DNA of 32,000 nucleotides. It comes from Archangium sp. (GTDB taxonomy: Bacteria; Myxococcota; Myxococcia; Myxococcales; Myxococcaceae). The first letter of the stretch is position 1. Each line of letters starts with the position of its first letter. Shown in pieces: positions 3,263 through 21,207 of this stretch. The notes below the pieces were generated by a model. The model did not search any database. It was given only the letters and a program-made list of their open reading frames with translations, and was not told the DNA's origin. The stretch spans positions 112,378-144,377 of the forward strand of contig NZ_DASUNC010000037.1 in NCBI RefSeq assembly GCF_036277355.1. Direction: 5' to 3'. A program made the position numbers and the translations under genes.

Positions 3263-4822
3263 TCAGCGGATCTTGAAGGCGTCGCCCTGCTTGCGTGACT
3301 CTTCCAGTAGCACCTTCTGCACCTCGGCGAGCTTCTCCTTGTAGCGGGTGTTGGCTGGCTCATAGGTGAGCGCCATCTTCAGGTTGCGCTCGGCCGAGGC
3401 CCAGCGGCCCGCGTCCGCGTCCGCCGCGCCCGTCTGGTAGAACTGCCGCCCCTTGGGGTGCACGCCGATCTGCTCCTCCACCTGGCGCTTGGAGGCGGCA
3501 CGCGTCTCGGCCTCGGAGGACTCGGTGAAGCGCAGCTTCTGGGCCCGCTCCGGCCCCGAGATGTTCGCCGTGTACTGCCGGCGCTTCGCGTCGTCCCGGA
3601 GCACGTAGTAGGCCTCGGTGACGCGCTTGTAGAGGTCGTGCACCCGGTCCTTCAGCTCCTTGTTGTCCAGGTGGAAGAAGCGGTCCGGGTGGTAGGTGCG
3701 GCTCTCGCGGTAGAAGGCCTTCTTGATGTCCGCCGGGGCGGCCGCGCGGTCCACCATGAGGACCTCGAAGTAGTCCATCTGATCCAACCGGGCGCAGCGA
3801 TCCCAGAGCTCGGTCATCTGGCTCGGGTCGATGTCCAGGGTCTTCCCGGCCGCGGCGGGCGGCGGGGGAGGGGGCTGGATGGCGGCGGCGGGCGGCGCGG
3901 GCGGGATGGCCGGAGCCACCGGGGGCACGAGCGGCGCGATGGCCGGCGCCACGGGCGGAGGAGGCGGCTGGAGCGCGGCGGGAGGCGGCGGTGGTGGACG
4001 CACCGGGCCGGCTCCGGACGGAGGCCGCGCGGCGGGTGTGGTCCCCGCGGGCGCCACGGCCGGCAGCGAGGTGGTGGGCCGCACGGCGGGACGTGGCCCC
4101 GAGCCCGGCGTGGTGCTCACGGGAGGCGGTGGAGGCACGGCCCCGGGCGCCAGCGTGGGCGGCTGCGCGCGGGACTGCGAGGCCGCGGCGGGCGGAGGCG
4201 GGGGCGCGCTGGCCGCCGCCGGGGGCGCGGGGGGCGTACCAGGAGGAGGCGGTGGCCGAACGGACGCCACGCTCGGAATTCCAGTGGCGGAGGGGCGCGT
4301 CGCCGAGGGCGTCCCCGGAGGACGCGGCGGCGTGGCGGGAGGCACACCCGGGGCAGCGGGCGCACCCGGAGGCACGGCCGGACGGGCTCCGGAGGTGGCG
4401 GCGGGAGCGCCCGGGGACGAAGGTGGCCGTGCCGCTGCAGGCGCCGTGGGTGCGCCGGGGGCCGAGGCGGGACGGGCCGCCGCGGGCGTGCCGGGCGTCG
4501 CGGGTACACCGGGGGTGGCCGGGCGGACGCCAGAGGCCGCGGCGGGTGCACCGGCGGTGGCCGGGCGGACGCCGGAGGCCGCGGCGGGTGCACCGGGAGC
4601 GGTCGGACGCGCGGCAGCGGGAGGTTGGGCGGGCGCTCCGGCTACCGGAGGCCGGGCGGGAGCCGCGGCGGGTGTGGCACCCGGGGGCGGCGGAGGGCGA
4701 GCGGGGGACACGGCGGGCGCGGTGGCTGCCGACGGACCCGTCCTCGAGCCCGGCGCCGCGGGCTGGGTCTCTGCCGGAGGGGCGGGGGGCTTCCCGGCGC
4801 CGTTCTGGGGAGGCTGGGACAT
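3263..4822 (-). CDS. J-domain (DnaJ-like) protein with a roughly 330-aa Pro/Ala-rich N-terminal region and a TPR-like C-terminus
   Basis: Track ORF 3263..4822. J domain: DYFEVLMVDRAAAPADIKKAFYRESRTYHPDRF...YKRVTEAYYVLRDDAKRRQY (HPD present). The N-terminal two thirds are P/A/G low complexity. The ATG at 4822 lies 9 nt after the Hsp70 stop, with GAGGGAGA upstream. Confidence 0.85.
   Translation of the reverse strand: MSQPPQNGAGKPPAPPAETQPAAPGSRTGPSAATAPAVSPARPPPPPGATPAAAPARPPVAGAPAQPPAAARPTAPGAPAAASGVRPATAGAPAAASGVRPATPGVPATPGTPAAARPASAPGAPTAPAAARPPSSPGAPAATSGARPAVPPGAPAAPGVPPATPPRPPGTPSATRPSATGIPSVASVRPPPPPGTPPAPPAAASAPPPPPAAASQSRAQPPTLAPGAVPPPPPVSTTPGSGPRPAVRPTTSLPAVAPAGTTPAARPPSGAGPVRPPPPPPAALQPPPPPVAPAIAPLVPPVAPAIPPAPPAAAIQPPPPPPAAAGKTLDIDPSQMTELWDRCARLDQMDYFEVLMVDRAAAPADIKKAFYRESRTYHPDRFFHLDNKELKDRVHDLYKRVTEAYYVLRDDAKRRQYTANISGPERAQKLRFTESSEAETRAASKRQVEEQIGVHPKGRQFYQTGAADADAGRWASAERNLKMALTYEPANTRYKEKLAEVQKVLLEESRKQGDAFKIR
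4515..4598. repeat. Two tandem copies of a 42-bp unit inside the J-protein Pro/Ala-rich region
   Basis: GTGGCCGGGCGGACGCCAGAGGCCGCGGCGGGTGCACCGGCG (4515-4556) is repeated at 4557-4598 with a few substitutions. It encodes the duplicated 14-aa unit GAPAAASGVRPATx on the minus strand. Confidence 0.7.
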
Positions 4823-4831
4823 CGCGCTCGT

Positions 4832-6448
4832 CTATCTCCCTCGACTGGTGGCCACGGCGGGCAGATCCGCCCCATGCCCCGCGAGTTGAATCTGCTTGTT
4901 GGCCTGGATGGAAGCCTGGATGTCCGCCTCGGACATGCCCGAGGACATGGTCAGCGTGGTGGACGTCTTCTGCCCCGTCTCCTGGTCCGTCGCCGACACG
5001 TTCACCAGGCCGTCGGTGTTGATCTCGAACGTCACGTCGATCTTCACCTCGCCCCGGTAGCCGATGCGGAAGCCCGAGAACTCGAACTCACCCAGCATCT
5101 CGCACTCGTCGGCGCGGTTGGACTCGCCCTGGTAGACGCGGATCTTCACCTTCTCCTGGCCATCGCGGCTGGTGGTGAACGTCTTCGAGCGGTCGATGGG
5201 CACCGGCGTGTTCTTGTCGATGACCTTCTCCGTGTAGCCGCCCACCGTGCCAATCCGCAGCGACAGCGGCGTCACGTCCACCAGGAAGGTCTCGGTGGCC
5301 GCGTCCAGCAGCGCGTTGGCCTGCAGCGCCGCGCCCATGGCCACCACCTGGTCCGGATTGATGCCCTCCTTGGGCTCCTTCTGGAAGTAGTGGCGCACCG
5401 AGTTGCGGATGATGGGCAGGCGCGTGGGGCCTCCCACCAGGATGACCGCGTCGATGTCCGCCGCCGTCATGCGCGCGGACTGCAGCGCCTCGTCGCACAC
5501 CTTGAAGGTGCGCTGCACCAGGTCCATCACCATCCGGTTGAACTGGTCCTGCGTGAGCCGGCCCGTCAGGTCCAACACGTTGCCGTTGGCGTCCTGGCAG
5601 ATGCCCTGGCAGTTCACCTCGGCCAGGCCCGTGCTGCCCACGTCGATCTTCGCCCGCTCGGCCGCGTCCTTGAGCATCTGCAGGCAGAACTTGTTCTGCC
5701 TCAGGTCCAGCCGCGTGCGCTTGAGGAAGTCGTCCGCCAGCCACGTCATGATGCGGTCGTCGAAGTCGTCGCCGCCCAGGTAGGTGTCACCGGCGGTGGA
5801 CAGCACCTCGAAGACGTCCTTGCCGATCTCCAGGATGGAGACGTCGAAGGTGCCGCCGCCCAGGTCGTACACCACCACGCGCTGGCTCACCTCGCGGCCA
5901 AAGCCGTAGGCGAGCGCCGCCGCGGTGGGCTCGTTGAGGATGCGCAGCACCTCCAGCCCGGCGATGCGGCCCGCGTCCTTGGTGGCCTGGCGCTGGTTGT
6001 CGTTGAAGTAGGCCGGCACGGTGATGGCCGCCTTCGTCACCTCTCGGCCCAGGTACTGCTCCGCGATGGCCTTCATCTCCTTGAGCACCAGCGCGGAGAT
6101 CTCCGGCAGCGAGTAGTCGTGCCCCCGCACCGCGATGCGCACCGAGTTGTTCTCGCCCTCGACGATCTGGTACGGCATCACCGCCTGGGCCTTCTTCACC
6201 TCGTCGGAGAAGAAGTAGCGCCCGATGAGGCGCTTGGCCGAGTACACCGTGCATTCGGGGTTGGTGATGATGTTGCGCTTGGCCGCGTTGCCCACCAGCA
6301 CCGAGCCGTCCTCGAGAAAGGACACGCACGAGGCGTGGGTCGTCTCACCCCACTCGTTGGGGATGACGAACGGCTGACCGTCCTGCACCACGGAGACACA
6401 CGAGGTGGAGGTGCCCAGGTCGATGCCGATCGCGATGTCGTCCGACAT
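4832..6448 (-). CDS. Hsp70-family chaperone, short form (538 aa, truncated C-terminal lid)
   Basis: Track ORF 4832..6448. Motifs: [91 protein letters not shown] precedes ATG 6448. Confidence 0.92.
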
Positions 6449-8941: not shown

Positions 8942-8961
8942 AGTGGTAGACGTCTACCACT
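8942..8961. promoter_or_regulatory. Perfect 20-bp palindrome AGTGGTAGACGTCTACCACT (operator candidate 1)
   Basis: Read directly from the sequence and self-complementary over all 20 nt. It has a GntR/HutC-like TGGT...ACCA half-site architecture. It lies in the divergent intergenic region upstream of the toxin gene. Confidence 0.6.
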
Positions 8962-8995: not shown

Positions 8996-9011
8996 TGGTA
9001 GACGTCTACCA
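8996..9011. promoter_or_regulatory. Second copy of the palindrome core TGGTAGACGTCTACCA (operator candidate 2)
   Basis: A perfect 16-bp palindrome identical to the core of the first copy. The two centres are 52 bp apart, about five helical turns. It ends 8 nt before ATG 9020 and 75 nt before ATG 9086. Confidence 0.6.
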
Positions 9012-9019
9012 CTGCAACG

Positions 9020-10819
9020 ATGTCGACCCTGCGCAACGCACCGCGTTCTCGCAGATGCCGCCCTGGATTTTGGACACGCCCACTCATGCCGCTGCGTTCT
9101 TCTGACGCCTCCTTCCGCGCGAGGGAGCGCTGCGCCTGGGGAGTGCTCATGCTGGCCCTGTGGGTGCTGAGCGGATGCACCACGGGTGCGTCTCCGGCCG
9201 GGCTGCTGGCGAGCCCACGCCCCCATCGCATGACGCCTTCCTTGCGTACGGAGGCAAGCCGGAGCGCCGCACAGCCAGAGGACTCCCCCACGCTCGACGA
9301 GGACGACGACCCGGAAGACGGCGTCGAGGAGGAACTCGGCGTCCCGATAGTGACGGCGGACGCACCTGGGGACGTGTCCGGCTCGCGGGGGCGCCGCCCG
9401 AGGCGGGAGGAGGACGCGCCGCTGGAGGACGAAGGTGGGGTCCCGGTGGGTTGGCCCGATGGTGTGGGGGACGGCCGCCCTGCCCCGGTGCCCTTCAGCC
9501 TGGACTACTTCCGGGGCCTGCTGCACCAGGTGGGCGTACCCGAGGAGGTGATGCTGAGTGACGGGAGCACCCTGTCTCCCGAGCAGGCGGTACAACTGTT
9601 GGCGCACCTGCTGGAGGCGGAGGCGGGGTTGGGGGAGTTTCCCCGCCAGCGCATGGCGGCGCACCTGCTGCTGGAGGTGGCCACGGGCGCGGGTCCGGTG
9701 ACGCGGGAGGAGTTGCACGCGCGCATGGACCGCTTCCACCGGTTGAGGGTGGTGCGGCCGGACGGCTACCTGGTGCGGGCGGTGACGGGCGAGGCCGTGC
9801 AGCGTGCGGGGGAAGTGCGGCTGGAACCGGACGGCACGCTGCGGGCGGGCCGCTACGAGGTGGGCCCCTTCTACGCGGTGGAGGACGGGCAGCTGTGGCC
9901 GGTGGACTCGGGGCTGGAGGTGCCCCGGGGTGCGAAGCCTCTGGGCCCCTATGTGCCGGATGACGGGGTGGTGCTGCCAGCGCTGGAAGGAGCGGGGCTG
10001 GCGCTGGGGGACATGCTCGAGGGGCTGTGCCGGCTCGTCTTCCACCCGGGCGAGAGCCTGGAGAGCCTGACGCAACTGCCGGGAGCGGTGCGCGTGCTCT
10101 TCCAGAATGCGCCCGAGTATTGGGAGACCTTCCGCCAGAGGCCGCGGGGCGAGCAGGTGCGTGAGATGTCGCGGCTGCTGGCCAACGCGCTGCTGACGGT
10201 GGGCACCTCGGGGGCGGGGGCGGTGAAGGCGGTGGGGTGGGGCGAGAAGCTCGGCCGGCTGTCGGTGCCCCTGCTGACGCTGACGAAGAAGGGCGAACTG
10301 GTGCTGCGGCTGGTGGCGGTGCCCGGGCGGGCCGTGACGGTGGCGGGCCAGGGAGTGAGCGTCGCCTGGGGCCTGCACCTGGCCAAGGTGGGCTCGGGCC
10401 AAGGTGGCGGCTGGGTGCCGCCGGTGGGGGGACCGGGGCAGTGGGTGCCCAAGAACGAGCGGATGTCGCCACGCTCACGTGCCTTCCAGCACAAGGTGAC
10501 GAAAGCGCCCGCGGGCTGGGTGTACCGGGTATGGCGCAATGGCGAGAAGGCGGACTTCGACGGCTTCGACCTGGACCAGCGCATCCTGACGGAGACCAAG
10601 GGCCTGGGCTACGACAAGCACTTCGATGCCGACCTCAATGCCAGGAAGTATTTCCGAGGCGCCAGGCGGCTCGTCAGGCAGGCCCAGCGGCAACTCCGGG
10701 TGGCCAAGGGTGTCCGCATTCGTTGGCACGTCGCCGAGGCCAGAATGGTGGACATTCTCAAGAGATTGTTCAAGCAGGAACGAGTCGAAGGTATAGAGGT
10801 GGTCCACACGCCACCCTAG
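9020..10819 (+). CDS. Lipoprotein polymorphic toxin with a C-terminal PD-(D/E)xK nuclease domain (Tox-REase-5-like); SitA-like architecture
   Basis: Track ORF 9020..10819; the functional start is more likely ATG 9086 (MPLRSSDASFRARERCAWGVLMLALWVLSGC). Lipobox L-S-G-C, followed by an acidic or disordered linker and a large middle domain. The last ~125 aa (from nt ~10442) read AFQHKVTKAP..ADFDGFD..RILTETKGLGYD...RQAQRQLRVAKGVRIRWHVAE..., that is D...ExK plus the conserved tail as I recall it for Tox-REase-5. Confidence 0.75.
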   Translation: MSTLRNAPRSRRCRPGFWTRPLMPLRSSDASFRARERCAWGVLMLALWVLSGCTTGASPAGLLASPRPHRMTPSLRTEASRSAAQPEDSPTLDEDDDPEDGVEEELGVPIVTADAPGDVSGSRGRRPRREEDAPLEDEGGVPVGWPDGVGDGRPAPVPFSLDYFRGLLHQVGVPEEVMLSDGSTLSPEQAVQLLAHLLEAEAGLGEFPRQRMAAHLLLEVATGAGPVTREELHARMDRFHRLRVVRPDGYLVRAVTGEAVQRAGEVRLEPDGTLRAGRYEVGPFYAVEDGQLWPVDSGLEVPRGAKPLGPYVPDDGVVLPALEGAGLALGDMLEGLCRLVFHPGESLESLTQLPGAVRVLFQNAPEYWETFRQRPRGEQVREMSRLLANALLTVGTSGAGAVKAVGWGEKLGRLSVPLLTLTKKGELVLRLVAVPGRAVTVAGQGVSVAWGLHLAKVGSGQGGGWVPPVGGPGQWVPKNERMSPRSRAFQHKVTKAPAGWVYRVWRNGEKADFDGFDLDQRILTETKGLGYDKHFDADLNARKYFRGARRLVRQAQRQLRVAKGVRIRWHVAEARMVDILKRLFKQERVEGIEVVHTPP

Positions 10820-10834
10820 TTCTGTACGATAGAC

Positions 10835-11545
10835 ATGAGAGAGACCTATTACACCGGGGCTTATTGGCCGGCGCGTCGCGAGTCTGCTGAGCAGTGCGCA
10901 CGACGCGCGGAGACCTTCTTTCGTCTCCTCTCGGATTGTGACTCCCTCTTCACGAATTGGTTCGAGCAGGCGAACTCAATCAAAAAAGCGCTGCAACTCC
11001 AGTTCGAGCCCACCTACGAGACGTTCCTGCGATTCTTCATGAGCAGGAAATACAATGAGGGGGCGTTTGGGTTCAGCTTCGGTGCTTGGACGGGGCACAA
11101 GGAGGATGGGCAGGGTGGGATGGTGGCGCTCAGTTGTGGCTCTGCTGTGACTCCCCCTCCAAACAATTGTCTTCTCCACCTGCCCGCGGAGGAACCAGGT
11201 GCCGAGCATGTACTCACCACGCAAGTCCTGATTCAGGTGCTTCGCGCGATGGTCCTGGCCTGGGAGCCAGCTGATGGTGGAGTCTTCTCGAAAGCCTACC
11301 AGGATCTGAGAGATGAGCCCGCGAGCAAGCCCTACACTGGTTGGCTCATGTATCTCTCACGCAACCGTGGGGAGGTGCCGCCTCTACCAGAGCCCGTGCG
11401 CGTCGAATCCGTAGAAGACAAGGGGACCCTCATCATCCTCACCCCGGAGCGCTTCACCGTGGGCAACCCGGCGCACATCGCCCTGGCCGACGAGGTGCGC
11501 ACGTTGCTGGAGCGGGCGGGGTTGTTGACCGGGTACAACCCGTAG
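10835..11545 (+). CDS. Cognate immunity protein candidate (Imm52-like)
   Basis: Track ORF 10835..11545, starting 15 nt after the toxin stop on the same strand. No signal peptide. The N-terminus MRETYYTGAYWPARRESAEQCARRAETFFRLL resembles the Imm52 family start as I remember it. GC is markedly lower than the flanks. Confidence 0.6.
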   Translation: MRETYYTGAYWPARRESAEQCARRAETFFRLLSDCDSLFTNWFEQANSIKKALQLQFEPTYETFLRFFMSRKYNEGAFGFSFGAWTGHKEDGQGGMVALSCGSAVTPPPNNCLLHLPAEEPGAEHVLTTQVLIQVLRAMVLAWEPADGGVFSKAYQDLRDEPASKPYTGWLMYLSRNRGEVPPLPEPVRVESVEDKGTLIILTPERFTVGNPAHIALADEVRTLLERAGLLTGYNP

Positions 11546-13782: not shown

Positions 13783-14412
13783 ATGGGACACGAGGGACAC
13801 GATCACGACCATGACCACGGGCATGGTCACGGGCATCACCATCACCCCCACGGGCACGAGCATGGCCACGACCACGGCCATGACCACTCCCACGGACACG
13901 AGCACGGCTCCGGGCCGGTGGCGGAGCACAAGGCGCACGCGCCGGTGCACGTGAGCACGTTCGTGGTGACGTGCTCGGACAGCCGCGACGAGTCGAAGGA
14001 CGAGAGCGGGCGGGTGCTGCGCGAGCTGCTGGAGGCCGAGGGCCATTCGGTGAGCGGCTACCGCGTCATCAAGGACGAGCCCGAGTCCATCCGCGCCATG
14101 CTGAAGGAGGCGCAGGAGTCCGGTGCGCGGGCCGTCATCTTCAACGGCGGAACGGGCATCGGCCGCCGGGACAGCACGGTGGAGACGCTGCAGGGCCTCT
14201 TCGAGAAGACACTGCCCGGCTTCGGCGAGCTGTTCCGGATGCTGTCCTTCCAGGAGATCGGCAGCGCGGCGATGATGTCGCGGGCCACCGCGGGGACGTA
14301 CCAGGGGATGATCCTCTTCTCGCTCCCGGGCTCGCCGAAGGCGGTGCGGCTCGCGCTGCGCAAGCTCATCCTCCCCGAGCTGGGTCACGCGGTGCGTGAG
14401 CTGACGCGCTGA
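13783..14412 (+). CDS. moaB: MoaB/Mog-family molybdenum cofactor biosynthesis protein with a ~45-aa His-rich N-terminal extension
   Basis: Track ORF 13783..14412. AGGAGG lies 5 nt upstream, and the gene starts 10 nt after the Rieske stop. The tail is GHEGHDHDHDHGHGHGHHHHPHGHEHGHDHGHDHSHGHEHG. The MoaB core follows: TCSDSR...NGGTGIGRRDSTVE...PGFGELFR...GSPKAV. Confidence 0.85.
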   Translation: MGHEGHDHDHDHGHGHGHHHHPHGHEHGHDHGHDHSHGHEHGSGPVAEHKAHAPVHVSTFVVTCSDSRDESKDESGRVLRELLEAEGHSVSGYRVIKDEPESIRAMLKEAQESGARAVIFNGGTGIGRRDSTVETLQGLFEKTLPGFGELFRMLSFQEIGSAAMMSRATAGTYQGMILFSLPGSPKAVRLALRKLILPELGHAVRELTR

Positions 14413-16373: not shown

Positions 16374-18584
16374 ATGTCCATCGTGGAGTCCCGCCTCGAC
16401 ACCGTGACGCTCTACCATCAGGGCGCGCGGGTAACCCGGTTGCTCTCGCTGGACTGTCCCGGGGGCAAGCCGCCCACGGTGCTGGAGATCCCCCGGCTGC
16501 CGCTGTCCCTGTTCGACGCCACCGTGCGCGTGCGCGTGCTGTCCACGGACAATCCCCAGGCGGACCTTTCCGCCACCAACGTGCGCGTGGGGTTGTGGAT
16601 CCCTCCCCGGGAAGCCCCCCTGGACACGGTGGACGAGGCCGCGCTGCGCTCCCTGCGCCAGCAGGTGCGGACCGTGGAGAGCCAGCTGCGGCAGCTCGAT
16701 TGGGAGATGTCCATCCTCGCCGGCATCCCCGTGCCGGAGCGTCCGGAGCCGGAGGAGGGCAAGCCCCCGCCGCCCGCTCCCCTGGGCGCACGGCTCGCCC
16801 TGGAGCAGTTCTCCCAGGACGGGGTGCAGTCCCGCCTCGTGGAGGCGCGTGCCCTGCGCGAGCAGCTCCGCAAGCTGAGGGAGGACGTGGCCGACCTCGA
16901 GGCCCGGATGGCGAGGGCCTCCACCGCGCGCGAGGTGACCGCGCGGGAGCTCCACAAGTCCGTCCACGTGCAGCTGCGCCACGCAGGCGGCGAGCTCCGG
17001 CGCGCGGAGCTCTCCCTCGAGTATTTCATCCCCGGCGCCCGCTGGGTTCCCTCCTACCAGTGCCGCCTGTCGCGGGACTGCCGGCAGGCGGAGCTGGTCA
17101 CGCGTGCCCTCATCTGCCAGGACTCGGGAGAGGACTGGCGCGGCGTGAAGCTGGTGCTCTCCACCGCCGCCCCCATGAGCTGGACGGAGCTGCCGGAGCT
17201 GTCCTCCATCCGCATCGGCCGCGCCCAGCCTCCGTTGCCCGCTCGCGCCGGTTTCCGCCCGCCCCCGAAGGGCGCCACCGCGCTCTTCTCCGACTATGAC
17301 CGCGACCGCCAGTCCTTGACCGTCCAGGCGCCGTTCATGCCGTCGTACTCGCCGCCCGCGCTGGCGGCCCCCTCGGATCTGGAGGAGGGCGTCGTCTTCG
17401 GCGGAGTGAGTGACGTCATCGAGCAACGCGAGGAGCGGAGGCGGAGCAAGAAGGTCTCGCGCCCGAGCCTCGACGCACTGGACGATGACATGGTCATGGC
17501 CGAGAGGTCGGCCGTGTACAGCGAGGTCTCCGCGGATGAGGGGGAGGTGGCGGCGATGGACGAGCCGGCCTACCCCATGGCACCTCCGCCGGCTCCCGCG
17601 CCCATGGCCGCCCGCCCTGCTCCCGCGCGCTCCAAGGGCGTGTCGCGCGGGGGTCCGGGGGGTCCCGCGAGCGGTGGTGGGGGCCCCTCGCAGGCCGGCC
17701 TGGAGGCGGTGGTCTTCACCCACCTGCGGCTCTCTTCGCCGGCCGATAGCATGCGCAACCGGCTCCAGCCCGTCGACGCGCGGCGCTTCTATCTGGAGTC
17801 GCTGTCCCGGTTCCAGGTGGAGGTGAATTTCGATGTCATGTCCGCGGTGGAGGAGGCCGAGCGGCGTGCCCTCGCCGCGGCCCACCAGGGGCTTCCGGCC
17901 GGCACCTCGGACGTCCGGGCGGCCAGTGGCCACTTCGACTTCAGCTACACGGCCGATGCCACGGTGGACGTCCCGTCCGACAACACCTTCCACTCCGTGG
18001 CCGTGGGCACGCGCACCGGCGAGTCCAGTGTCCTCTACGTGGCCGTCCCGCGCGAGGACAGCAACGTCTACCGCCAGGCGCAGGTGACGAACCCGCTGTC
18101 CGCTCCCATGCTGCCGGGCCCGGCCGAGGTCTACGTGGGCGGCGAGTATGTGCTCTCCACCACGCTGCCCTCGGTGCCCCCGCGTGGCGAGTTCAAGCTG
18201 GGCCTGGGCGTGGAGCAGGCCATCCGCTGCGCGCGCAACACCCGCTTCAGCGAGGCCCGCAGCGGCGAGAAGATCGTCGCGACGACGGAGCTGTGGCACG
18301 ACATCCTCATCGACCTCGTCAACAACCTGGACCGGGAGATCGTCTGCGAGGTCCGCGAGCGCATTCCCCAGCCCGCGCCGAACGCGGAGGTGGTGGTCGA
18401 GGAGAGCACCGTCACCCCCGCGTGGGAGCCCTATGCGCAGGAGGAGCGTGGCAGTGTGCTCGAGGGAGGACGCCGCTGGCGCCTCACCGTCCCCGCCAAC
18501 GGGACGAGCAAGCTGTCCGCCCGGTACGTGGTGAAGCTGTATGCCAACAACGAGCTCAACGGCGGCAACCGCCGGGAGGCCTGA
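16374..18584 (+). CDS. DUF4140/DUF4139 (MuiA-like, TIGR02231-type) protein, long paralog with a disordered insert
   Basis: Track ORF 16374..18584, with GGGAGGG upstream. N-terminal VTLYHQGARVTR, then a coiled-coil stretch (LRQQVRTVESQLRQLDWE...LREQLRKLREDVADLEARMA), YFIPGARWVPSYQCRL, GEDWRGVKLVLSTAAP, and C-terminal LPGPAEVYVGGEYVLSTTLPSVPPRGEFKLGLGVEQ. No signal peptide. Confidence 0.8.
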   Translation: MSIVESRLDTVTLYHQGARVTRLLSLDCPGGKPPTVLEIPRLPLSLFDATVRVRVLSTDNPQADLSATNVRVGLWIPPREAPLDTVDEAALRSLRQQVRTVESQLRQLDWEMSILAGIPVPERPEPEEGKPPPPAPLGARLALEQFSQDGVQSRLVEARALREQLRKLREDVADLEARMARASTAREVTARELHKSVHVQLRHAGGELRRAELSLEYFIPGARWVPSYQCRLSRDCRQAELVTRALICQDSGEDWRGVKLVLSTAAPMSWTELPELSSIRIGRAQPPLPARAGFRPPPKGATALFSDYDRDRQSLTVQAPFMPSYSPPALAAPSDLEEGVVFGGVSDVIEQREERRRSKKVSRPSLDALDDDMVMAERSAVYSEVSADEGEVAAMDEPAYPMAPPPAPAPMAARPAPARSKGVSRGGPGGPASGGGGPSQAGLEAVVFTHLRLSSPADSMRNRLQPVDARRFYLESLSRFQVEVNFDVMSAVEEAERRALAAAHQGLPAGTSDVRAASGHFDFSYTADATVDVPSDNTFHSVAVGTRTGESSVLYVAVPREDSNVYRQAQVTNPLSAPMLPGPAEVYVGGEYVLSTTLPSVPPRGEFKLGLGVEQAIRCARNTRFSEARSGEKIVATTELWHDILIDLVNNLDREIVCEVRERIPQPAPNAEVVVEESTVTPAWEPYAQEERGSVLEGGRRWRLTVPANGTSKLSARYVVKLYANNELNGGNRREA

Positions 18585-18585
18585 C

Positions 18586-20205
18586 ATGAGCACGGCCATC
18601 CAGACCCTGGGTGTGGAGCGCTACGAGCCCGCCTTCCCCGAGGCGGCTCCCGTCCTGGACGCGCCGGTGCGCGTCGTGACGTTGCTGGAGGATCGGGCGC
18701 AGGTGACTCGCGGCGGCACGGTGCGCGTGCGCGCGGGGCAGAACCGCGTCGTGGTCCAGGGCGTGGCTCCGGTGATGCAGGACGTGTCCCTGCGCGCCGA
18801 GGTCATCTCCGGACGGGCCCGTGTGGCGGACGTGCGCGTCCGCCGCAGCCTGCGCATCCGGATGGCGGACAAGCCCGAGGCGGCGCGGGTGCTCGAGGAG
18901 CGCATCGAGGCCCTGCGGCGCGAGCGCGAGCAGGTGCTGGAGGACCAGGCCCGCGCCCGTGCTCGCTTCGATCGCGTCCAGCGGATGCTGGTGCTCGGCG
19001 CCTCGGAGATTCCCGAGGACGCGGGGTGGGGCATGGGTGCCGCGGCCCAGTGGCAGGACACGTTCGATTCCCTGTTCCGCAAGGCCCGCCAGCTGCGCGA
19101 GGCGGCGCTGAAGGCCACCTTCACCGCGGAGCGGCTGGCCGAGGAGATCGCCGCCGTGACGCGCCAGCGTCAGGCGATGGCTCGCGTGGACCAGCAGGTG
19201 GTGGGCTGGCTGGAGGTGGACGTGCTCGCCGAGGCCGAGGGCGAGGTGGAGGTCCGCATCCACTACGTGGTGCCCAACGCCCTGTGGCGGCCGCTGCACT
19301 CGGCGCGCCTGCTGGAGGGGAAGCGGATCCTCTTCGCCTCGTCCGCCGCGGTCTGGCAGGACACCGGCGAGGACTGGAAGGAGGCGGAGCTGCGCTTCTC
19401 CACGGCGCGCTCCTCGCTGGGCATCGAGCCGCCCCTGCTGCAGGCGGACCTGCTCACCGTGAAGAAGAAGAGCGAGACGGTGGTGGTGCAGGCCCGGCAG
19501 GTCCAGGTGCAGAAGGCCGGACTGGGCAGTTCGCCTGCCTCGGGCGGGGCCGCTCCGGCGGCACCCTCCGCCCTGGATCTGCCCGGCGTGGATGATGGCG
19601 GGGAGACGCGCAACCTGAGGGCGCCCGGACGGAACACCATCGTCTCGGATGGGAGGCCCCACATCATTCCGCTCTTCACCTTCGAGGCCGAGGCGGAGTC
19701 GTCGCTCGTGGCCTTCCCGGAGCTGGAGACGCAGGTGTTCCTGCGGGCGGTGGCGCGCAACACCTCGCCCAACCCGGTGCTGGCGGGGCCGGTGGAGCTG
19801 CTGCAGGAGAACGGCTTCGTGGGCTGGACCCAGACGCTGTTCGTGGCGCCCCAGGAGAAGTTCGAGCTGAGCTTCGGCCCGGAGGAGTCCATCCGCATCC
19901 AGCGCGAGGCGAAGCGGGAGAGCGAGCTCCACCCGGTGAGCAAGTGGAACGAGACCACGATGCGGCTCACCCTCTACCTCTCCAACCTGTCGGGGAGCGC
20001 GCGCTCCGTGGCGGTCTCCGAGCGCCTGCCCGTGTCGGAGATCGAGCACGTGAAGGTGGAGTTGGACCGCGAGAAGACCAGCGGCGTGCCGGTGCTCGAC
20101 GAGAACGGCTTCTGCACATGGAAGGTCGAGCTGCCCGCCAACGGTCATGCCCGGCTGCACCTGGTGTTCAAGGTCTCCACGGCACCGGGCGTGCAGAGCG
20201 CCTGA
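18586..20205 (+). CDS. DUF4140/DUF4139 (MuiA-like) protein, short paralog
   Basis: Track ORF 18541..20205, trimmed to ATG 18586 (GGGAGG upstream), one nt after the preceding TGA. Blocks parallel the upstream paralog: VVTLLEDRAQVTRGG, a coiled coil, YVVPNALWRPLHSARL, GEDWKEAELRFSTARS, and LAGPVELLQENGFVGWTQTLFVAPQEKFELSFGPEE. Confidence 0.8.
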   Translation: MSTAIQTLGVERYEPAFPEAAPVLDAPVRVVTLLEDRAQVTRGGTVRVRAGQNRVVVQGVAPVMQDVSLRAEVISGRARVADVRVRRSLRIRMADKPEAARVLEERIEALRREREQVLEDQARARARFDRVQRMLVLGASEIPEDAGWGMGAAAQWQDTFDSLFRKARQLREAALKATFTAERLAEEIAAVTRQRQAMARVDQQVVGWLEVDVLAEAEGEVEVRIHYVVPNALWRPLHSARLLEGKRILFASSAAVWQDTGEDWKEAELRFSTARSSLGIEPPLLQADLLTVKKKSETVVVQARQVQVQKAGLGSSPASGGAAPAAPSALDLPGVDDGGETRNLRAPGRNTIVSDGRPHIIPLFTFEAEAESSLVAFPELETQVFLRAVARNTSPNPVLAGPVELLQENGFVGWTQTLFVAPQEKFELSFGPEESIRIQREAKRESELHPVSKWNETTMRLTLYLSNLSGSARSVAVSERLPVSEIEHVKVELDREKTSGVPVLDENGFCTWKVELPANGHARLHLVFKVSTAPGVQSA

Positions 20206-21207
20206 GTCGAGAACGGCCTGTGGCGGCTCGACGCCGCCAGCGGCACCACCAACGCCTGGGGCGCGATGGCTGGACAGAGTGGACTCCCGCTGGTGAGCGG
20301 CCAGACGTACACCCTGTCCTTCACCGCCTCCGCCTCGGCGAGCGTGAGCATCCTCACCACGGTGCAACTGGACAGCGCCCCCTACACGGCCACCCTGAGC
20401 AAGCAGGTCGCGCTCGACGGCACGTCGCGGCGCTATTCGTTCCCCTTCACCTCGTCCGTGAGCTCCGCTCAGGGGCAGGTGACCTTCCAGTTGGGCGGCC
20501 GTGGTGCCCTTACCGTCCGGCTCGACGACATCTCGCTCACCCTGGTGGCCTACAACATCCCCGGCCGTGACTGCGGCAGTCACTCGGGCGGCGGCGCGGG
20601 CTCTCCCGATGCCTACCGCTCGTGGATCTCCGCTTTCGTCTCGGGCCTCGGTGCCCGTCCCGCCATCGTGCTCATCGAGCCGGATGCACTGGCCCAACTC
20701 GACTGCCTGCCGAGCGACTGGGACCGGCAGACCCGGTTGGATCTGCTGCGCTACGCCACCGAGCAACTGCGCGATCGCGCGCCCAACACGTGGGCCTACA
20801 TGGACGGAGGCAACGCGCGGTGGATTGCACCCGACACCATGGCGCAGCGGCTGCAGTCGGCCGGGGTGGGCAACATCCGGGGCTTCGTGGCCAACGTCTC
20901 CAACTTCTACACCACGTCCGAGACGGTCACCTACGGCAACGCGGTCAACGCCGCCCTGTCCAGCCGCTACGGCTACACCCGGCCCTTCGCGGTGGACACC
21001 AGCCGCAACGGCAATGGCTCCAACGGGGAGTGGTGCAACCCGGCCGGACGCAAGCTGGGGACTCCGACGCAGGCGGGCGGTGGCGCGGAGTTGCTGCTGT
21101 GGGTGAAGGTCCCCGGCGACTCGGATGGCCAGTGCGGCATCGCCCCGGGGACGCCCGCGGGCCAGTTCGACCCGGAGCTCGCCTGGCGGCTCATCCACGG
21201 CACCTGA
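20206..21207 (+). pseudogene. Remnant of a CBM-GH6 cellulase: a carbohydrate-binding-module fragment fused directly to the C-terminal ~220 aa of a GH6 catalytic domain
   Basis: Track ORF 20266..21207; the frame is open back to 20206. LVAYNIPGRDCGSHSGGGAGSPDAYRSWISAFVSGL...IEPDALAQL...DTSRNGNG..EWCNP.GRKLGTP...LLWVKVPGDSDG aligns from memory to Thermobifida-type Cel6A, from the YNxPGRDC block onward. The ~75 aa of the catalytic domain that normally precede this block are absent, as are a linker and a signal peptide. Confidence 0.6.

Follow-up and report, generated by a model that had tools for sequence, protein, structure and literature searches.

Within a 32,000-nt stretch of DNA from an Archangium sp. 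metagenome-assembled genome (MAG), contig NZ_DASUNC010000037.1 (hereafter the window), two adjacent genes on the same strand very probably form a functional SitA3-type sitAI cassette that acts by outer-membrane exchange. The first open reading frame (ORF1, 9020-10819) encodes a lipoprotein of 599 amino acids (aa) in which a SitA3-type escort domain is followed by a C-terminal nuclease domain of the Tox-REase-5 family. The second (ORF2, 10835-11545), separated from it by 15 nt, encodes a 236-aa immunity protein of the Imm52 family. From the methionine at residue 23, M23, ORF1 is 100% identical to a 577-aa NCBI protein from an Archangium sp. MAG, and residues are numbered from M23 unless the 599-aa ORF is named (22 is to be added for the 599-aa numbering). 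The initial annotation of this DNA had proposed a lipoprotein-delivered nuclease toxin and immunity pair resembling SitA/SitI. That proposal stands on homology to SitA3 over both the escort and the toxin domain, on the lipobox and on the adjacent immunity gene, but the new escort family that was part of it does not. The finding adds one sitAI allele to a family that comprises 15 to >80 loci per myxobacterial genome; it does not add a new delivery domain.

The toxin, its escort domain and the immunity protein

SitA toxins have been sorted into six families, which are set by N-terminal escort domains of ~375 aa (PMC8546572). Judged by sequence, the middle domain of ORF1 is the known modular SitA3 escort domain, and it is this homology that defines membership of the family. 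Five reference SitA3 sequences were rebuilt from eLife 2017 Supp 3 (PMC5562445) and compared with ORF1 by BLASTP. Two of the matches run through both escort and toxin, namely SitA3^Mf1 (LILAB_02580, residues 84-517), which aligns with ORF1 residues 140-577 at 38% identity (E 3.5e-69), and Q664_23910, which aligns with residues 160-576 at 39% (E 4.7e-71). Two others are confined to the escort domain: SitA3^Mx (MXAN_1899), which carries a tRNase toxin (ORF1 137-442, 36%, E 1.8e-40), and D187_005663, which carries an Ntox47 toxin (ORF1 160-423, 37%, E 4.9e-38). Since LILAB_02580 begins with MRAGHW, the translation of primer SitA3-Mf1_F1 (mBio 2021 Table S1), it is the allele shown to kill by outer-membrane exchange.

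Close relatives of ORF1 were in fact listed as early as 2017. Vassallo et al. 2017 (PMC5562445, Supplementary file 1B) list, under "Homologs of SitA3 N-terminus", a 588-aa Archangium gephyra protein whose lipobox context reads LGGCATSAPLP, together with several from "Cystobacter violaceus" (570-607 aa) that have QTACATGYPMG. None of them has sitB, and the same strings occur in our homologues P0012, P0077 and P0111. The middle domain had initially matched nothing recognisable and was thought to be possibly a new escort or delivery family. We reject this, given its 36-39% identity to the published SitA3 escort domains (E 2e-40 to 5e-71) and the presence of the clade in that published set.

The escort domain opens at an invariant GWPDGVGDGRP motif and holds a hydrophobic, Gly-rich stretch, LLTVGTSGAGAVKA. 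A first AlphaFold model, built on 24 close homologues, was confident for the toxin domain only (predicted local distance difference test, pLDDT, 80-92), the escort domain reaching a poor 51. In a second model (AlphaFold 2, AF2) built on 80 diverse sequences, the escort domain reached a predicted template-modelling score (pTM) of 0.74. Since Foldseek found no relative of this domain model in the PDB (best E 4.3), its fold gives no clue to mechanism.

Upstream of the escort domain, the classical lipobox LSGC noted at the outset is present, and its Cys (C53 in the 599-aa numbering, residue 31 from M23) lies behind a hydrophobic core of 12 residues. The type II signal peptide was judged by sequence inspection and conservation. 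Every homologue with a complete N-terminus (~80) has the lipobox, as either L[GSA]GC or LQ[TA][AG]C, and the +2 residue is Ala or Thr, never Lys. A residue other than Lys at +2 is the rule for sorting to the outer membrane cited in eLife 2017 Supp 1 (PMC5562445), and ORF1, with its lipobox Cys and Thr at +2, conforms to what is known of SitA signals. The linker between the lipobox and the escort domain is probably disordered.

The C-terminal domain of ORF1 is predicted to be an intact PD-(D/E)xK nuclease of the Tox-REase-5 family. The family had been proposed from a sequence signature, and a profile search agrees: Pfam PF15648 matches residues 486-573 of the 599-aa ORF with E 8.9e-14 and 52.3 bits (cut-off 25) over profile positions 1-94 of 95. 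The active site is intact, with D492, E/D503-x-K505 and Q536 invariant in 24 aligned homologues. A nuclease module of this kind at the C-terminus is also what is expected of a SitA toxin. When the toxin model was searched with Foldseek, the TseT-TsiT crystal structures were the only significant fold matches in the PDB (9oz0_B, PA3907-PA3908, E 6.3e-6; 7dym_A, TseT-TsiT, E 3.2e-4; both with probability 1.00). The toxin domain had no match when its sequence was searched against the PDB, and NCBIfam has no family for either protein of the cassette. TseT belongs to the PD-(D/E)xK nucleases, as do its Burkholderia homologues; the latter cut both DNA and RNA, and mutation of the conserved Asp and Lys inactivates them (Yadav et al. 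2021; 10.1101/835710). By analogy with TseT and TseTBg, the domain in ORF1 would be expected to be active and toxic.

The Tox-REase-5 module is bounded on its N-terminal side by a Gly/Pro-rich junction, and the GPGxW motif marks its start. Of 20 unrelated carriers, 14 have the motif GPGxW..ESMS at the N-terminal boundary of the module, and it is likely to be a recombination junction. Tox-REase-5 is also carried by a second lipoprotein family with another N-domain, starting ...VRLDTGQGKPLV... (P0256, P0241, P0219 and P0178 among the toxin-only matches described below).

ORF2 is a cytoplasmic Imm52 protein. It has no signal peptide, and Pfam PF15579 covers its residues 3-232 with E 9.1e-75 and 251.7 bits, above the curated cut-off (profile 1-231 of 233), in keeping with what had been suspected from its N-terminus and its position 15 nt downstream of the toxin gene. 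The full-length profile match is combined with adjacency to a Tox-REase-5 gene, and ORF2 lies immediately downstream, where SitA toxins have their immunity gene. In the PDB, a sequence search with Imm52 gave only a weak match, to the uncharacterised protein 4rho. Together, the Pfam assignments and the Foldseek result for the toxin model uphold the proposed likeness to the Tox-REase-5/Imm52 pairing of TseT/TsiT.

Amongst named systems, SitA3^Mf1/SitI3^Mf1 of Myxococcus fulvus HW-1, an outer-membrane-exchange toxin by experiment that itself carries PF15648 (PMC8546572), is closest to the window cassette. Both toxins are lipobox lipoproteins with a SitA3 escort domain, a GPGxW motif and a Tox-REase-5 domain ending in ...GIEVV.TPP; in both cases there is no sitB upstream and the immunity gene is directly downstream. 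The two proteins align colinearly over 440 residues at 38% identity. The window protein differs in a linker that is ~60 aa longer, in its own GWPDGVGDGRP motif, with which the escort domain opens, and in belonging to an Archangiaceae-specific clade with a fixed toxin type. SitA3^Mx (MXAN_1899; sitBAI3 of M. xanthus DK1622, PMC5562445) is also a lipoprotein with a homologous escort domain (36% over ~305 residues) and a polymorphic C-terminal nuclease followed by an immunity gene, but its nuclease is a CdiA-type tRNase, and it has sitB upstream and lies on the Mx-alpha prophage, whereas the window cassette is chromosomal and has no sitB. Since SitA3^Mf1 and all Archangium/Cystobacter SitA3 homologues of this clade were also listed without sitB (PMC5562445), this gene is not a defining feature.

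The likeness to TseT-TsiT (PA3907-PA3908, H2 type VI secretion system (T6SS) of P. aeruginosa; 7dym, 9oz0) is one of fold and partner, with a template-modelling (TM) score of ~0.6-0.65 for the Tox-REase-5 domain and an Imm52 protein as partner. However, TseT is a cytoplasmic effector carried on a T6SS spike, whereas ORF1 is predicted to be a Sec-exported lipoprotein with an escort domain, and the identity is only ~20%. TseTBg/Tsi of Burkholderia gladioli NGJ1 (10.1101/835710) likewise pairs Tox-REase-5 with Imm52, and the reported repression of the operon promoter by its Imm52 proteins is a possible parallel to the palindromes upstream of ORF1 (see below), but it is T6SS-linked and lacks both a lipoprotein signal and an escort domain. 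SitA4, SitA6 and SitA7 (PMC8546572) share with the window clade the association of one toxin family with each clade while alleles vary; they are stated to be non-homologous to SitA3, and SitA4 and SitA6 carry AHH nucleases. As the SitA families are mutually non-homologous by definition and ORF1 is homologous to SitA3, its membership of SitA7 is unlikely on sequence grounds.

The distribution of the escort domain is wider than that of the cassette. A sequence search of 1.84 billion representatives returned 929 clusters at E <= 1e-3, which split into full-length, escort-only and toxin-only matches. The escort-only matches end in CdiA_C, Colicin-DNase/WHH, HicA-like or DUF2380 domains; one member of the set, P0173, is 80% identical to MXAN_1899. 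Some escort-domain relatives (P0153, P0163, P0169, P0170/P0269) have no lipobox and begin instead with an eCIS_core/DUF4157 (HExxH) head; these carry CdiA_C or DUF2380 C-termini. One of these, a cluster from Leifsonia poae, a Gram-positive actinobacterium, has an escort domain 36% identical to that of ORF1 (E 9e-39) and ends in DUF2380. SitA homologues were stated in 2017 to be confined to the Myxococcales (PMC5562445); given the Leifsonia poae cluster, this no longer holds for the escort domain. The presence of the domain in a Gram-positive host would fit a role in passage across the cytoplasmic membrane rather than a task specific to the outer membrane.

Distribution and divergence in the Archangiaceae

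The homologue set consisted of the best 120 of at least 237 sequences. All of these 120 come from Archangiaceae (Archangium, Vitiosangium, Cystobacter and Melittangium), are 49-85% identical to the toxin over its full length and, with a single exception, carry PF15648. When one genome was scanned for each species, at least 59 loci of the clade came to light, again all in Archangiaceae: A. violaceum Cb vi76 has ~10, A. minus 6, Vitiosangium 4 and each of two A. gephyra genomes 3-4. An Imm52 homologue starts 16-28 nt past the toxin stop in ~45 of the 47 loci with a complete toxin. Amongst the other arrangements, locus L003 holds two tandem cassettes ~2.5 kb apart, and in L006 and L014 the toxin stop and Imm52 are separated by ~0.75-0.83 kb.

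Divergence amongst the closest paralogues is uneven along the cassette: relative to the window, the escort domain is 85-89% identical and the toxin domain ~80%, and Imm52 has fallen to 56-64%. In the near clade, Imm52 identity is not correlated with that of the escort or toxin domain (Spearman about -0.2, not significant). Fast divergence of Imm52 alongside a constant toxin family would be expected from a quick diversification of immunity specificity, and it resembles the published picture for the non-modular SitA families. On these comparisons, the Archangiaceae proteins appear as a sub-clade of SitA3 that is non-modular, couples Tox-REase-5 to Imm52, is present in up to ~10 copies per genome and has immunity as its fastest-evolving part. 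Published families show both behaviours, since SitA4, SitA6 and SitA7 each have one fixed toxin type and SitA1/2, SitA3 and SitA5 are modular (PMC8546572).

An orthologue of the cassette lies in A. violaceum Cb vi76 at the same site and between the same neighbours, with flanking proteins 90-98.7% identical. Between the two genomes the ratio of nonsynonymous to synonymous substitution rates (dN/dS) is 0.30 for the whole toxin gene, 0.13 for its toxin domain (95% identity), 0.29 for the escort domain (87%) and 0.50 for the linker alone; for Imm52 it is 0.28 (91%). Signal peptide and linker together retain only 53.5% identity, against 87-95% for the other parts. These ratios indicate purifying selection on the gene pair, which occupies a stable position in the chromosome. 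The idea that the cassette forms a mobile-element island was rejected, as neither an integrase nor a transposase gene is present and A. violaceum shares the synteny of the site.

Proposed mode of action and its alternatives

Based on the characterised SitA systems (Vassallo 2017; Vassallo & Wall 2019; Vassallo et al. 2021), we propose that, once Sec has exported the precursor, its lipobox Cys would be lipidated and signal peptidase II would cleave the protein. Where two cells have compatible TraA/TraB receptors, their outer membranes would then fuse, allowing the lipoprotein to diffuse into the partner. There, the escort domain may exploit an envelope protein of the recipient to bring the toxin module across the inner membrane, and the nuclease would cut nucleic acid in the cytoplasm (DNA, by analogy with TseT) unless the cognate Imm52 is present. 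The Imm52 protein would stay in the cytoplasm of the producer and not be transferred, so that the cassette would serve as one digit of a kin-identity barcode. For this clade, both the function in kin discrimination and the dependence on TraAB are predicted from homology. Alleles of traAB have been reported from Archangium gephyra, from an Archangium clade and from Cystobacter violaceus, and sitA is stated to occur only in species that contain traAB (PMC5562445).

Several observations speak against this proposal. There are no sitB or mobile-element genes and the site is syntenic, unlike the typical sitAI loci borne on Mx-alpha or other mobile genetic elements. Neither toxin (95%) nor immunity protein (91%) is hypervariable between the two orthologues, and therefore this particular locus may not tell the two strains apart. 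Erosion of the Shine-Dalgarno sequence and of the paralogue-type start codon in the lineage of the window makes the expression level uncertain. The clade is just 36-39% identical to the SitA3 toxins that have been tested by experiment, and functional divergence amongst SitA3 escort domains is known. Finally, the support from traAB comes from the literature on relatives, and no traAB lies within the 32-kb window.

It could be argued that the lipoprotein acts without TraAB exchange, being released in vesicles or exposed on the surface to poison prey or distant bacteria, with the immunity protein guarding only against self-intoxication. We consider this unlikely. The lipid anchor is the sole visible delivery determinant, and the escort domain is also found in lipobox-less proteins and in a Gram-positive host and so is not tied to outer-membrane exchange; a chromosomal, syntenic locus that is not hypervariable between orthologues would suit such a role as well. 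However, the nearest characterised relatives, SitA3^Mx and SitA3^Mf1, are strictly TraA-dependent, the family is limited to genera reported to carry traAB, and the quick diversification of immunity amongst paralogues fits intraspecific conflict rather than predation.

It is quite improbable that ORF1 is a decaying or weakly expressed allele, kept mainly because Imm52 protects against the toxin of neighbours. The ORF is intact with all of its catalytic residues, its toxin domain shows the strongest constraint in the cassette (95% identity between species, dN/dS 0.13), and an in-frame upstream ATG is kept in both genomes. What would favour decay lies in front of the coding sequence, where the GGAGG Shine-Dalgarno sequence is degraded, the paralogue-type ATG has become AGG in A. 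violaceum and a consensus scan detected no σ70-type promoter.

It is highly improbable that the two genes form a TseT-TsiT-like effector-immunity pair of a T6SS, or else a toxin-antitoxin or abortive-infection module that acts inside the cell, since the signal peptide is conserved, which essentially excludes such roles: the family-wide Sec/lipoprotein signal would place the protein on the periplasmic side, incompatible with cytoplasmic T6SS loading or intracellular toxin-antitoxin action, and the nuclease is preceded by a 300-aa escort domain common to outer-membrane-exchange toxins, despite the same toxin fold and Imm52 partner as in the P. aeruginosa T6SS pair, the proposal that Burkholderia Tox-REase-5/Imm52 pairs derive from toxin-antitoxin systems with an Imm52 that represses its own promoter (10.1101/835710), and the palindromic operator-like sites upstream. 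Amongst the 20 neighbouring ORFs of the 32-kb window there is no PAAR, VgrG, Hcp, Rhs or adaptor gene, such as would accompany a cytoplasmic T6SS effector, and likewise no sitB, CdiB, integrase or transposase gene; the initial annotation was thus correct that none of sitB, Rhs, PAAR, VgrG and CdiB is adjacent. Delivery by contact-dependent inhibition or by an Rhs system was also rejected, since no such genes are present and the protein has a signal peptide.

Cassette layout, upstream palindromes and neighbouring genes

The features of the cassette are listed in Table 1. The window has a G+C content of ~70%, and the third-position G+C (GC3) of ORF1, at 0.86, identifies it as a real gene. In ORF2 the GC3 is 0.73 (0.65-0.70 over the first 180 codons), against 0.88-0.97 (~0.92) for the neighbouring genes, which is consistent with either a foreign origin or a rapid turnover and fast evolution of the immunity module.

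Table 1. Positions of the cassette features in the window (residues in M23 numbering)
Feature	Position	Strand	Details
Palindrome copy 1	8944..8959		perfect 16 bp, TGGTAGACGTCTACCA; extends to 20 bp as AGTGGTAGACGTCTACCACT
Palindrome copy 2	8996..9011		perfect 16 bp, TGGTAGACGTCTACCA; ends 8 nt before ATG 9020 and 74 nt before ATG 9086
sitA3-like lipoprotein toxin gene (ORF1)	9020..10819	+	599 aa from ATG 9020; 577 aa from ATG 9086
Type II signal peptide	9086..9178	+	M23 start; basic n-region, h-region AWGVLMLALWVL, lipobox LSGC
Lipobox LSGC	9167-9178	+	Cys codon 9176-9178; +2 residue Thr
Linker	9179..9448	+	variable alignment columns, pLDDT 25-34; acidic DEDDDPEDG stretch
SitA3-type escort domain	9449..10390	+	residues 122-435; homology to published SitA3 sequences
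Gly/Pro-rich junction	10391..10444	+	GSGQGGGWVPPVGGPGQW; ends GPGQW (10427-10441); GPGxW marks start of toxin module
Predicted Tox-REase-5 PD-(D/E)xK nuclease domain	10439..10819	+	C-terminal; residues 452-577; Pfam span 10475-10738
Catalytic Asp	10559-10561	+	
Catalytic E-x-K	10592-10600	+	
sitI-like immunity gene (ORF2)	10835..11545	+	236 aa, Imm52, without signal peptide; 15 nt past toxin stop

The start codon of ORF1 is ambiguous between ATG 9020 and ATG 9086, but the mature lipoprotein is identical either way. The NCBI annotation starts the identical protein at M23 (ATG 9086), and in the paralogues the equivalent ATG is preceded by a GGAGG Shine-Dalgarno sequence that is degraded in the lineage of the window. 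At the orthologous A. violaceum locus the M23-equivalent codon reads AGG, whereas ATG 9020, which lies 8 nt past the second palindrome, is kept in frame in both genomes.

Upstream of ORF1 lie two exact copies of the palindrome TGGTAGACGTCTACCA, 52 bp apart, a count that was reached in 0 of 100 shuffles; nor did any shuffle give 3 or more matches. Both copies and their 52-bp spacing are kept in the A. violaceum orthologue, and the spacer has diverged. In 525 kb of related loci, where 0.56 occurrences of the core GTAGnCGnCTAC would be expected, there are 13. In several close paralogues, perfect palindromes of 16-22 bp but of other sequence stand equally far from the lipobox codon, often as a pair separated by 42-56 bp. 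In an A. gephyra paralogue CAGGTGTAGACGTCTACACCTG occurs twice, an A. lansingense paralogue has CACTTGTCATGATGACAAGTG and a near-copy, and a MAG paralogue has ACTTCCAGGCGCCTGGAAGT and CTTCTGGACGTCCAGAAG. The paralogue palindromes are at L001:5802/5854, L018:3808/3864, L006:3751 and L052:3757, at about -229/-282 from the Cys codon in L005, and in L044. A single operator motif for the whole family was rejected, as TGGTAGACGTCTACCA is limited to a few close paralogues. The consensus promoter/terminator scan also flagged palindrome 1 as a terminator, a call that we set aside since a terminator would make no sense between divergent genes.

Burkholderia Imm52 proteins are reported to repress the promoter of their own operon (Yadav et al. 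2021; 10.1101/835710), and by analogy the palindromes are possibly operators for the immunity protein of the cassette itself. More speculatively, the twin palindromes might bracket a likely promoter and place the cassette under repressor control. If so, such cassette-specific twins would be a first hint of how the expression of sitAI genes might be controlled. A further-reaching idea, which at present seems rather doubtful to us, is that the Archangiaceae clade constitutes a distinct, self-regulating sub-type of SitA3, defined by the fixed coupling of Tox-REase-5 with Imm52 and by cassette-specific twin operators to which Imm52 or the toxin-immunity complex would bind. Were this true, specificity would diversify by allelic change of the immunity protein and not by exchange of toxin modules, and the autoregulation would resemble that of type II toxin-antitoxin systems.

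The gene immediately upstream of the cassette is divergent and encodes a trypsin-like protein; the other upstream neighbours encode a ClpX-like AAA protein, CvpA, a DnaJ-domain protein, Hsp70, a class-II amidotransferase and a CPBP protease. Downstream are genes for PolX, MoaB, TrkA/RyR, two DUF4139 proteins and a GH6 cellulase, amongst others. Positions 4001-5000 of the window reach 80% G+C with a GC skew of +0.19 and fall inside a 519-aa minus-strand ORF (3263-4822). The only Pfam match of this ORF is DnaJ at residues 350-417, and the A. violaceum annotation has a far shorter DnaJ gene; the ORF may in part be a shadow or low-complexity extension. Further along the window, the adjoining genes 16374-18584 and 18541-20205 are paralogues that each encode DUF4140 plus DUF4139, and after this pair comes a gene (20266-21207) for a GH6 cellulase of the secreted type that bears a CBM_4_9 module. 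At 13783-13944, the longest MoaB-like ORF opens with a His/Asp-rich stretch that resembles a metal-binding sequence, GHEGHDHDHDHGHGHGHHHHPHGHEHGHDHGHDHSHGHEHG; the A. violaceum annotation starts this gene later (155 aa).

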